The position numbers and the translations under genes are program-made. The notes beneath the pieces were generated by a model that worked only from the letters and a program-made list of their open reading frames with translations, was not told the DNA's origin and searched no databases. Source: Sphyrna mokarran (lineage: Eukaryota). From it: 64,000 bases of DNA. Numbering within the stretch: the first letter of the stretch is position 1; every line of letters begins with the position of its first letter. Below are positions 25,521 to 63,556 of the stretch, in pieces. Where the stretch lies: NCBI GenBank assembly GCA_024679065.1, contig JAGIQG010000013.1:76384001-76448000 (forward strand), written 5' to 3'.

Positions 25521-25636
25521 GTTACTTTGTATTAAATCTCCCTTAACCTTCTTGATATATGACAAGTAATTTCTCTATTTAGGGATGATACTTATTTTAG
25601 GTTTATTCTATGGATATACGTATGTCATCAATTGAG

Positions 25637-26026
25637 AACTCAGTAAAGTTTTACAACACCAATTTTAAATCCAACCAATTTATTTGATAGTAAATCTGCG
25701 AGCTTTCGACTTTACAGCCTTCGTCAGACAAATGCAGTGTTCTGATCTGCAGAGGCACTCATATCCACACAGACAGTTACAGATTGCTGATTAGAATGCG
25801 AATCCTCACTTACTGTGCTGTCTGGAGAAAATACACAATTCTCTAACCAATGCTCAGGATTCCCTTCACACACATTGTTAGCCATTTTAACACTTGAATA
25901 GCAGGTTAGATGTAAGGATTCGTCGAAAGCTTGCAGATTTACTATCAAATAAATTGGTTGGATTTAAAATTGGTGTTGTAAAACTTTACTGAGTTTACCC
26001 CAGTCCAACGCTGGCATCTCTGCATC
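25637..26026 (+). mobile_element. Penelope-like element remnant (inverted terminal repeat plus tail, TSD)
   Basis: 74-bp inverted arms 25637-25710 / 25922-25995 (1 mismatch); tail TACCCCAGTCCAACGCTGGCATCTC; direct repeat TCATCAATTGAGAA at 25625 and 26025. Confidence 0.82.
25694..25733 (-). ncRNA. Minimal hammerhead ribozyme motif (PLE type)
   Basis: Minus strand ATTTGT-CTGACGA-A-GGC-tgtaaa-GTC-GAAA-GC-TC-GCAGAT; stem I pairs over 6 bp with G-U wobbles. Confidence 0.68.
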
Positions 26027-27954
26027 ATCAATTGAGAAACCATTGAATTGCACATGTAAGCTGTTTCTGGTGAGGACACAGTAGAGATAAATGGAAAGTT
26101 GTCTGGTCAGTCATGTGCTCCATATGGTGAACTGAGCCAGTGGGCCTCCTCCTAATGTCTGAAAATAGGGCGCTTAACCAGCAAACTTTGTGGATCAGGT
26201 TTCTAGAGCAGCAGTATCTGCTGAGGTAGTGCCCAAGATTCAAGCATGGTGGTCACCCTACGATTTATGAAGTATTTCACCTTTCCACTTGTAAGAGAAA
26301 CATGAGACTTGTAAGTTGTTATGGGATAATTTACTAGAAGAATCCCACCTTAAACTTCTTTCAATTGCGCACATCGTGTTAGAAGCTCCCATGAAATGCC
26401 CTTTCATTTTGGAGGAACAGCATAGCACAATGATCTGTCACCTTATGGTAATATGTTTGCTTGTAGCAATAAGTATCTGAGTGTCAGATATGTATGTGAG
26501 TTTTTACTGTCAATATAAAACACATTTTGATCAGTGATGCATTTATAGCTTTAGACTTTGCTTCTTGAGCACCAAACAGGCCATACCTAACATGATAACA
26601 GGAAGCTTTGGAAGTCCATGGGTGACTTTTTTTTCTTGCCCATTGTATGCTGATCATTGTGAAGTGACAAGTGATTGGTGGTTTGCGGTGACTGGTGGAC
26701 AGATCTCAGTATTTTGTTTTTATACAAGCTGTCAAGCAATGTGAAGTGTTAGCACAGTAATTATGATTTGACTCTATTTATAATGCAAAACTTAGTTTGT
26801 TTGACCAGCCACTAGGCATGTAGTCAGGCTATTGCTGCATGTTTAAGATGCAGTTTCTGCGTGTGAACATGCTGTGCTTGACTCATTATTGGAGATGCAA
26901 AAATGAATGTGCAGTGATTGCCGTTCAGTCTCGATGGTGAAACCATATTTATGACTTAGAGATGAGTAAACAGGATGAGCATTTAGATCGTTTGCTGAAA
27001 CAAATCTTTAGATATCTATGCTTAATTGAAATGAGGCAATTGATATTTATGTAGCTATTTTAATAACTTGTCAGATCATAAGCCTTTGTGTCCAGATAAT
27101 ATTTCTGGATTACGAGATCAACTTAGTCATTGAACCTTATCACTTTGCTGTTTCTGTTCTAAATCCTGAAAAAGGTGGTGTCAGTTTGCAGATCTTAGGA
27201 TTTCATCTCTCCCCTTTGCAAGAAATCCGCATAATATATTTATATAGATATTTAATTTATTATTTATTGGGGCGGCATGGTGGCACAGTGATGAGCACTG
27301 CTGCCTGACAGTGCTGGGGACCAGGGTTTGATTCCCAACTTGCTTCACTGTCTGTGTGGATTTTGTATGTTCTCCCTTGTTTGCGTAGTTTTCTCCCACA
27401 TTCTGAAAGATGTGCTGGTTAGGTGCGTTGACCCAAACAGGCACCTGTATGTGGTGACTCGGGGAATTTCTCAGTAACTTCACTGCAGTGTTAATGTAAG
27501 TCCATTTGTGACTACTAAATGAACTTTATTTAAATGAATAGCCTGCTTTTTGACTTTCTGTACAAAGCTTTGCTCTGTTTCTCCCATGTCTGCCTATGTT
27601 TAAATTGTGCATGGTACAGTAATATTGCTCCACTGATAAAGTCAAGTAAAAATCAGCATACTTGTTAATTTCAGGATCTTGGTGCTGTATCTATGTAAGT
27701 TGTTCTGTCGCTCTATTCTGATCCAAGTTGCTCATGCAATCCAAGTATGGAGCCCAGCTCAGTCGTCACGTTCTCGCCTGAGTCATTAGCTCTTTGGTTG
27801 AATTGACATGTTGGAGACTGAAATGCATATTTTAGCTGACACTTCACTGCCTCTCCATCAAGAAAAGGTGCTAAACCAAGGCCAATCTGCATTCTTAGAA
27901 TGACCTAAAAAAAAATCATATGGTATCATTTCGAAGAACAGGGAAGTCCAGTGG

Positions 27955-61581: not shown

Positions 61582-62393
61582 GTAAAGACATTGGACTAAT
61601 TTGTCTGTTTGGTTGTTATGAGTGAAAGTACCTTATGCATTTGGCTAGGACAGATATATGTTTTAAATATTCTGGATAAACACCAGTTTCTTATCCCTTG
61701 AACTCATGAAATTCCATTATGATAGGTCTATATAGGTGGCATTTGCAAATTTGTAGGGAGTGAATACAATTAATGTTATTTGCCCAGGGTGAAGAGAAGC
61801 ATTGAAATTGGACATGAAGTATTGGTACTTATCCTTGTAATAACATCATGAATCTGTTTAACAAGTATATGTGCCAGTTTGGCATTGGAGAACATGATGG
61901 ATACTTGCTGTTCCATCAGCTAGGAATTTTCGTTAAACATGGAAATGCAAATGAATATATTTTAGAACAATTAGCATCAGCTCTTTGTTCTTTTCTATGT
62001 AGAGTGGTTTACCTTAAAGCTTCATTAGATCAGAAATAGTATTTTATTCTTTCACGCAGCCCCAGGAAAGAAATTACTCATGTGTCTTACATATGACTGC
62101 AGACCCACAGCATTGTGGTTGACTCTCAACTGTCTTCAAGGGCAAATCAAAATGGTTACCAAATATTTAGCCTTGTGAGAAATGTCTACAAGCCATGAAA
62201 GAATCATTTTACAAAGGGACATCCCAAAACACTTAAGTGAAATACTTCTTAGATATTGCAATGTAGAAAATACAATTGCCAATTTGCACACACAAGTTTT
62301 CACAATGTGATACGTGACAGATCATTTCCAGTGGTGTTGATCCATGGATAATTGTTGTTTGGGATACAGAAAGAGCTCCCTGGTTCTTAGAAA

Positions 62394-62704
62394 AGTAAGA
62401 ATTCTCACAACACCAGGTTAAAGTCCAACAGGTTTATTTGGTAGCATAAGCTACTAGCTTTCAGAGCACTGCCCCTTCATCGGGTAAGAGGAATTTCAGT
62501 TCACAAACAGGGCATATAAAGACACTAACTTGATGTCTGTGTTGACATACCGTGTTTGTGAACTGAAATGCCACTTACCCGATGAAGGGGCAGTGCTCTG
62601 AAAGCTAGTAGCTTATGCTACCAAATAAACCTGTTGGACTTTAACCTGGTGTTGTGAGAATTCTTACTGTATTTACCCCAATCCAACGCCAGCATCTCCT
62701 CATC
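62394..62704 (+). mobile_element. Penelope-like fold-back element nested in a Deu-type SINE
   Basis: 116-bp inverted arms 62394-62509 / 62553-62668 (2 mismatches), tail to 62704, imperfect TSD TCTT(A/T)GAAAAGT. Confidence 0.85.
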
Positions 62705-63556
62705 TTTGAAAAGTGAGATGCGATTGTTCTCTTTCACTATAAGAGGGCAATTAGGGCTCTGCTTTAATGATTCAGCCTTTTGACACTGCAATCCTTTGTC
62801 AGTACTGTATTGAACTGTCAGCAAGCGTTGATTATGTGCTCAAATCTCTGAAATGGGGTAGAACCAATAACCTTCAGACTCAGGTGCTACCTCTGCACTT
62901 AAAGTAACAGATCTGACAGACCAAGAAGAGCTGAGGTTCAGACAATAGGCAGGGGAGAGTTACTGAGGAAGGCAATTCTGTTGATTTTTCTGACCCTGCG
63001 TGAATAAATGGAAATTTCTGATTGGATTTTTTATTCTGGTTGCTAGTAATTGTTCGTTGGGAGGGAGGCGTATATGTGCATTGAGTCAGGCTGTGTTGTC
63101 CCAAAATGTCAACACCCACTAACCTGAGCTTTCATATAACAAAATTGGCACTTAAAAGAGTTGCAGAGAGCTGTTGATGCTAATTCAACTCTATCTCAGT
63201 AAATCTCACTTGCAACAGTACATTGAACAGGCAGAGAATTGAATGGGGGTTAAAAATGCAGACCCCAGATACTGTGACATATGTTTTCTATATGTCAATA
63301 GTTAATGACACCAATTGCCCTTGAATGAGTACAGTAGCAGTTGAGCAATGATTGGTCTATGGTTTGTAATATACGAACATACAAGGATTATCCCCCAGCA
63401 TCTTCTGTAGACATTTTTATTTACAAATAATTCCAGTGCTTTTGAGTACTAGTTGACCATTTTCAAATAGGATTACAGAGGAGCTGCCATGATCAGATTG
63501 TTCACCTGTTGGCTTGATGTATTTTTCCCATATACGTTGCAGACAATTATTACTGT

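Follow-up and report, generated by a model that had tools for sequence, protein, structure and literature searches.

Four intronic insertions in a shark importin-alpha gene are probably truncated ends of a Penelope-like retrotransposon carrying minimal hammerhead motifs

The window, by which we mean the whole 64,000-nucleotide stretch of DNA analysed here, contains importin-alpha (KPNA3-like) exons on the plus strand at 24209..24253, 48272..48361 and 61412..61579, the end of the last being approximate. No exon was found between the first two, so the three insertions that lie between them, E1, E2 and E3, share one intron (24254-48271); a fourth, E4, lies downstream of the third exon. The best natural PDB match of the exon was importin alpha-3 (37/40 identical), and we take the residues that differ to fit KPNA3 rather than KPNA4. 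A first-pass annotation had placed the insertions in introns of KPNA3; of this, importin-alpha is borne out by a PDB match named importin alpha-3, and the KPNA3 label is consistent with the differing residues.

Sequence comparison within the 64-kb window revealed that the four intron insertions are mutually homologous, and each is flanked by a target-site duplication (TSD) of 9-14 bp, in agreement with the initial view that they are related. E1 (25637..26027, pLTR subfamily A) has two arms arranged head to head: an inverted arm at 25637-25809, equivalent to pLTR positions 311 to 139, and a sense arm at 25801-26027, in which pLTR positions 28-149 are fused to 238-343 and which ends in a tail at approximately 25996-26027. 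Its 14-bp TSD lies at 25625..25638 and 26025-26038 (plus strand). E1 is 98% identical to L024, a long ORF-linked copy, and a genome search with E1 returned copies 98% identical across the arm. E2 (29311..29650, subfamily B) and E4 (62394..62704, the older subfamily D) are also two-armed and head to head, with TSDs of 9 bp (29306-29314 and 29650-29658) and 12 bp (62385-62396 and 62703-62714), respectively, each with one mismatch. In all three inverted pairs the last ~32 nt, the tail, is present on the right arm only. E3 (34975..35106, plus strand, subfamily C) is a solo 5'-truncated pLTR end that starts at hammerhead stem I and has a 14-bp TSD with one mismatch (34967-34980 and 35107-35120); its start had earlier been set at 34940 and is corrected here to near 34975. 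Other copies related to E1, E2, E3 and E4 diverge from their own majority by 1.4%, 4.1%, 3.4% and 7.3%, values that are lower bounds as the comparison sets were picked for likeness. These differences indicate that the insertions stem from four subfamilies of different age. E2 sits inside a SINE (29101-29730), which we take to resemble shark HE1, and two weak tRNA-like matches below the gathering score at 45043-45203 (minus strand) are possibly SINE heads.

Seven hammerhead-like copies were identified within E1-E4. The arrangement CTGAnGA..GAAA-GC-TH, at first attributed to all four insertions, holds for the E1 minus and E3 plus copies, which have a complete core, and fails in the other five. 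The E1 minus copy (25694..25733, core at 25727) is antisense to the host gene; its stem II is GGCU/AGUC with a GUAA loop, its cut is predicted between 25700 and 25699, and the closing pair of its stem I is a private U-G, with C found in 29/29 relatives. In the plus arm of E1 an 88-nt deletion removed the 5' half of the hammerhead. E3 (34975..35012, plus strand, core at 34980) has a 3-bp stem II, GGC/GUC, and a predicted cut between 35007 and 35008. As the importin-alpha exons are on the plus strand, this copy, placed by the annotation at 34976, is indeed sense to the host pre-mRNA. The E2 plus remnant (29524..29559) retains intact TTCAC/GTGAG and GAGG/CCTC stems and has lost G12 and A13, and the E2 minus remnant (29345..29385) carries G8A and a broken 10.1-11.1 pair. 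Both E4 copies (plus, 62575..62611; minus, 62451..62487) carry the same two changes, U4C (CCGATGA) and a G-U at 10.1-11.1. The stems quoted in the annotation are present in the sequence, as is the AGCT after GAA to which stem III was said to be reduced; the stem I TCAC/GTGA belongs to E2, and E3 has TCAC/GCGA with an A-C mismatch. Within the window a loose core pattern gave 9 matches against 6.04 expected, an Rfam scan returned no hammerhead match, and single-strand folding found none of eight stretches to be more stable than shuffles (z-scores -1.0 to +0.4). Within the window the loose pattern is at chance level, and support for the hammerhead comes from the genome-wide family.

At that level the core (CUGAnGA-N-stem II-GAAA..UH with stem I) is clearly present. 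A pattern that fixes the core, G10.1-C11.1 and AGCT only had 24,676 exact matches genome-wide, and its reversed control had 1. We examined covariation in 96 of the first 100 matches listed, all on one contig; these include related copies, and the counts from 2,000 shuffles are thus not probabilities. Stem II pair 10.2-11.2 was paired in 92/96 (shuffle mean 81.0, max 88) and pair 10.3-11.3 in 90/96 (shuffle mean 50.8, max 66), the latter as C-G (56), A-U (17), G-U (7), G-C (6) and U-G (4). The third free pair holds in 55/96, and all three exceed every shuffle. For pairs 2 and 3 of stem II, a rough tree built on ~140 nt requires at least 9 and at least 6 steps common to the two sides of the pair. 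Covariation in stem I is confined to pair 2 (84/96; shuffle mean 68.3, max 76) and, weakly, pair 5, with pairs 3, 4 and 6 not above shuffles (758, 1604 and 178 of 2000); the G-C to A-U change at pair 2 can arise through CpG decay on both sides. The palindromic AGCT of a minimal stem III was kept in 37/38 core-spanning arms; being fixed by the search pattern, it gives no readout of stem III covariation. Judged by its sequence, the minimal type I hammerhead is genuine at the level of the family, and the proposal of covarying stems in several variants stands, most clearly for stem II.

Minimal hammerheads of this kind have been described in the pLTRs of metazoan Penelope-like elements (PLEs), including the fish elements Neptune, Poseidon and Xena (Cervera and De la Pena 2014, PMC4209133). 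The shark motif shares with them the type I layout, an extra base between positions 9 and 10.1, the G10.1-C11.1 pair, a palindromic 15.2-16.2 without a stem III loop, the division into many covarying families, and an occurrence mostly as solo copies or opposite-strand pairs 100-700 bp apart. It differs in stem II, which is 3-5 bp in the shark element and 7-8 bp in Schistosoma, and in copy number, at least 24,676 here against ~4,000 in coelacanth and ~9,000 in Xenopus, counts obtained under different search rules. The main text of PMC4209133 contains no shark motifs, which may be included in its supplements and in those of a preprint on non-LTR retrozymes (bioRxiv 10.64898/2026.07.22.740005). 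With the present data, a feature already known from PLEs extends to a shark-like genome.

The annotation had ascribed the repeats to PLEs and called for the autonomous element with RT and GIY-YIG. Both are answered by relatives in which such an ORF adjoins the pLTR. In many E1 relatives the pLTR is preceded by a reading frame that ends in GLNRDLGFMSHYL. In L027 an open frame of 453 aa, with RT followed by GIY-YIG, lies directly upstream of the pLTR and scores 29.0 bits against Pfam RVT_1 (cut-off 29.6) and 23.8 bits against Pfam GIY-YIG (cut-off 22.6); a single ORF in this order is that of EN+ PLEs. The L027 frame also contains a CX4CxxC linker (CHSNLCKTC), and its VYL and YIG boxes are separated by a stretch with two Cys. 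A CX2-5CxxC linker before a C-terminal GIY-YIG with a CCHH motif is the mark of Neptune (Craig et al. 2021, PMC8557442), and its presence in L027 suggests that the element is likely of Neptune type, an assignment made by motif and not by tree. Protein homologues of 881 and 882 aa share 65% and 56% identity, and a Chiloscyllium match covers 22% of the query at 75% identity, consistent with a shark host. Among database proteins from turtle and bamboo shark, pieces of the PLE ORF are fused to zinc-finger or ankyrin proteins, which may be annotation artefacts or exonisation.

The order of the parts is given by L082, a partial tandem of pLTR-ATG-ORF-pLTR in which the pLTR occurs as in the tandems of EN+ PLEs. 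The tail of one pLTR abuts the ATG of the next ORF (4440-4455, minus strand), giving a unit of ATG-ORF (~890 aa, RT then GIY-YIG)-pLTR (~340 nt); the hammerhead lies ~105 nt ahead of where the pLTR tail ends. All three long loci examined have stops or frameshifts and none a fully intact ORF, and no PLE ORF was found within the window itself. Contigs from RNA libraries contain the pLTR and the ORF start and are uninformative on ends, strand or level. Among L082 and L083, one long copy begins at that ATG without an upstream pLTR.

We also considered that E1-E4 belong to a separate short, non-autonomous family, retrozyme- or MITE-like, with a fixed unit mobilized by PLE proteins in trans, a form of which the annotation had thought probable. 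The majority of copies are short and without an ORF, and one chondrichthyan genome has non-LTR retrozymes proposed to be pLTR-derived (bioRxiv 10.64898/2026.07.22.740005); like these, the shark insertions combine pLTR-related sequence, a type I hammerhead and a copy without an ORF. Retrozymes, however, consist of a fixed unit repeated head to tail, its hammerheads complete (bioRxiv 10.64898/2026.07.22.740005), whereas E1-E4 are dispersed, variably truncated ends of an ORF-bearing element, head to head in E1, E2 and E4. No direct repeats of the unit occur at the four loci, and in place of a fixed non-coding unit we found ORF-contiguous relatives and variable ends. Among the closest relatives (the best 30 loci per insertion, with window copies removed and a contiguity filter applied), the ORF end is contiguous at 17/29 loci for E1, 15/29 for E2, 5/29 for E3 and 11/28 for E4. 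Junctions vary from locus to locus, 5' ends and inversion junctions vary continuously, and in the genome search the E1 deletion junction was spanned by none among the matches listed. As relatives of all four insertions run directly into the RT and GIY-YIG ORF, a short non-autonomous family is not supported; for E1-E4 it is largely refuted, and we regard it as improbable.

In its place we favour, at a probability of roughly 90%, the reading that E1-E4 are separate 5'-truncated pLTR ends of a protein-coding Penelope-like retrotransposon, likely Neptune, which derive from different subfamilies and carry minimal hammerheads that are predicted to act as dimers only and are mostly damaged here. An inverted 5'-truncated copy together with a 30-40 bp tail is known for EN+ PLEs (Craig et al. 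2021, PMC8557442; Adineta Pen2a, PMC3846280), and E1, E2 and E4 each have an inverted truncated copy, a one-sided tail of 30-40 nt and a TSD of variable length. The shark element resembles the EN+ PLEs of these reports in 5' truncation, partial tandem, inverted arm, one-sided tail, TSD of 9-14 bp and C-terminal GIY-YIG with a CX2-5CxxC linker; it differs in host, in sequence and in a tail that lies wholly before the ATG and does not overlap the ORF start. On all sequence features tested it fits both the EN+ PLEs and the PLE minimal hammerheads. From the work on EN+ PLEs and on the anole element Poseidon_Ac (PMC8557442; Frangieh et al. 2024, PMC11167929), the element endonuclease would nick AT-rich DNA, and reverse transcription would prime at the tail end, pass the hammerhead and usually stop early, with a second, tail-less arm laid down inverted; the head-to-head form may reflect priming on both nicked strands. 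The two arms of a single head-to-head insertion differ in stem II variant at L007, L148 and L337, as if copied from two sister RNAs.

Poseidon_Ac begins reverse transcription at its tail, its ribozyme needs protein, and its core mutants insert normally in vitro (PMC11167929). Both elements have a pLTR hammerhead and a tail that marks the start of reverse transcription, and insertion of the anole element in vitro occurs without cleavage; in Poseidon_Ac, however, the ORF begins in stem II and reverse transcription starts 111-118 nt inside the ORF (PMC11167929), whereas the shark ATG is ~105 nt downstream of the predicted cut, at the tail end, and the clade differs by motif. Selection solely on sequence downstream of the hammerhead gave 66 arms, of which 59 pass the predicted cut site, 22 have the strict core and 24 reach an ORF-end motif. 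Genome-wide pattern counts of A/C-type arms revealed no excess of copy 5' ends at the predicted cut: 96 arms start there, against 41 at a control 4 nt upstream, for which the pattern was trimmed by 4 nt at the 3' end, and 157 at one 8 nt downstream, and under a rough null about twice as many would be expected for the cut pattern. Hammerhead sequence is retained upstream in 7/30 inspected arms that start at the cut. Since most copies span the predicted cut site, we infer that the RNA that was copied was uncut or rejoined there.

The lack of an excess of ends, the damaged cores of large subfamilies and the other functions left open by PMC4209133 would all fit a motif that binds protein or acts as a promoter within the pLTR and no longer works as a ribozyme in the shark lineage. 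We consider this unlikely, as stem II occurs in many variants while the catalytic core stays the same, and the homologous anole motif cleaves and loses cleavage upon core mutation (PMC11167929). On the retrotransposon reading, selection acting on source elements over the long term has likely maintained the ribozyme, which would have a role in processing tandem transcripts through an AGCU/AGCU intermolecular stem III, perhaps assisted by protein, and which is likely dispensable in cis for each round.

For the host gene the intronic copies are probably inert. The complete core and sense orientation of E3 allow for a ribozyme that cuts the importin-alpha intron, alone or by pairing with E2, whose substrate half is intact and lies 5.4 kb upstream, and so alters or lowers host expression. 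The 5' arm of E3 fully pairs with the 3' arm of E2 in a designed structure of -6.1 kcal/mol, but an alternative fold is more stable (-9.0), stem II of E3 is 3 bp long, its stem I contains a mismatch, and no partner lies next to it. Such motifs failed to cleave as monomers and cleaved weakly as dimers (PMC4209133), the dimer model is the accepted view (PMC6765202), and the anole motif requires protein (PMC11167929). Because the copies in the window are mostly decayed products, they are unlikely to affect the host pre-mRNA, and cutting of the intron by E3 seems to us highly improbable.

This genome offers minimal hammerheads in a very large, young and covarying set, together with the protein that matches them, a resource for determining the role of PLE ribozymes in vivo. 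A side result matters more, namely dispersed copies that share a core-breaking change. A sister subfamily with stem II GACAC/GTGTC, which includes loci L344-L373, is ORF-linked, with 1,958 matches and ~2% divergence. Counted by hand in the first 100 matches listed, G8A occurs in 55, C11.1T in 34 and the neutral C7T, at the same CpG as G8A, in 7, and both core CpG sites are intact in 14. G8A and C11.1T avoid each other (7/55 vs 27/45, p ~7e-7) and define largely separate haplotypes. Among 27 copies examined, each haplotype has varied flanks and 5' ends, as expected of separate insertions, and a tail base tends to separate the haplotypes (nominal p 0.04 among 21 columns). By established hammerhead chemistry, G8A is expected to abolish cleavage. 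The core change G8C abolishes cleavage of the anole motif (PMC11167929), and the U3-A8 compensation described in PMC4209133 does not apply here since C3 is fixed by the search pattern. Our literature search found no report of an inactive G8A hammerhead in Penelope elements.

The haplotypes, as read from these sequences, point to source elements with a damaged, likely dead ribozyme having spread the GACAC/GTGTC subfamily. If so, an animal retrotransposon would be able to move without cis-cleavage, which agrees with what was seen in vitro for the anole element (PMC11167929); one subfamily supplies natural variants, both intact and dead, with which to test the idea directly. The pattern could also be explained by one or two prolific source copies, with no advantage of a dead core. 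A bolder proposal, which we hold tentatively and at somewhat less than even odds, is that catalytically dead source elements out-copy intact ones. With reverse transcription starting ~105 nt downstream of the cut, cleavage would destroy the template, so that G8A lineages (about half of the young 1,958-match subfamily) and G12A lineages (a third of subfamily B) would flourish; the ribozyme would persist over the long term, perhaps because intact RNAs cut dead-core ones in trans when the two form heterodimers. If true, the genome records selection on an active ribozyme in a living vertebrate.

In subfamily B, G12A and C11.1T number 33 vs 5 among 100 matches listed, again counted by hand, and the linkage of G12A is nominal (p 0.006 and 0.012 among 24 columns); in 51 mixed arms, G8A and C7T number 14 vs 2. 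Core state agreed between arms in 17/25 cases against 14.6 and 16.5 expected, no rise over independence, which leaves source inheritance unsupported outside the GACAC/GTGTC subfamily. CpG asymmetry was rejected as a general rule: core and other CpG sites differed at p = 0.08 and 0.045 in subfamily A, not significantly in B or C with both core sites pooled, and in reverse in D, where the query biased the set. The nominal linkage in B and the lack of raised concordance between arms likewise speak against a general rule. The 2-nt loss of G12 and A13 seen in E2 (29548-29549) recurs in unrelated subfamily B copies (L117, L127, L129) and is present in 4/100 subfamily B matches listed, sometimes in one arm only.
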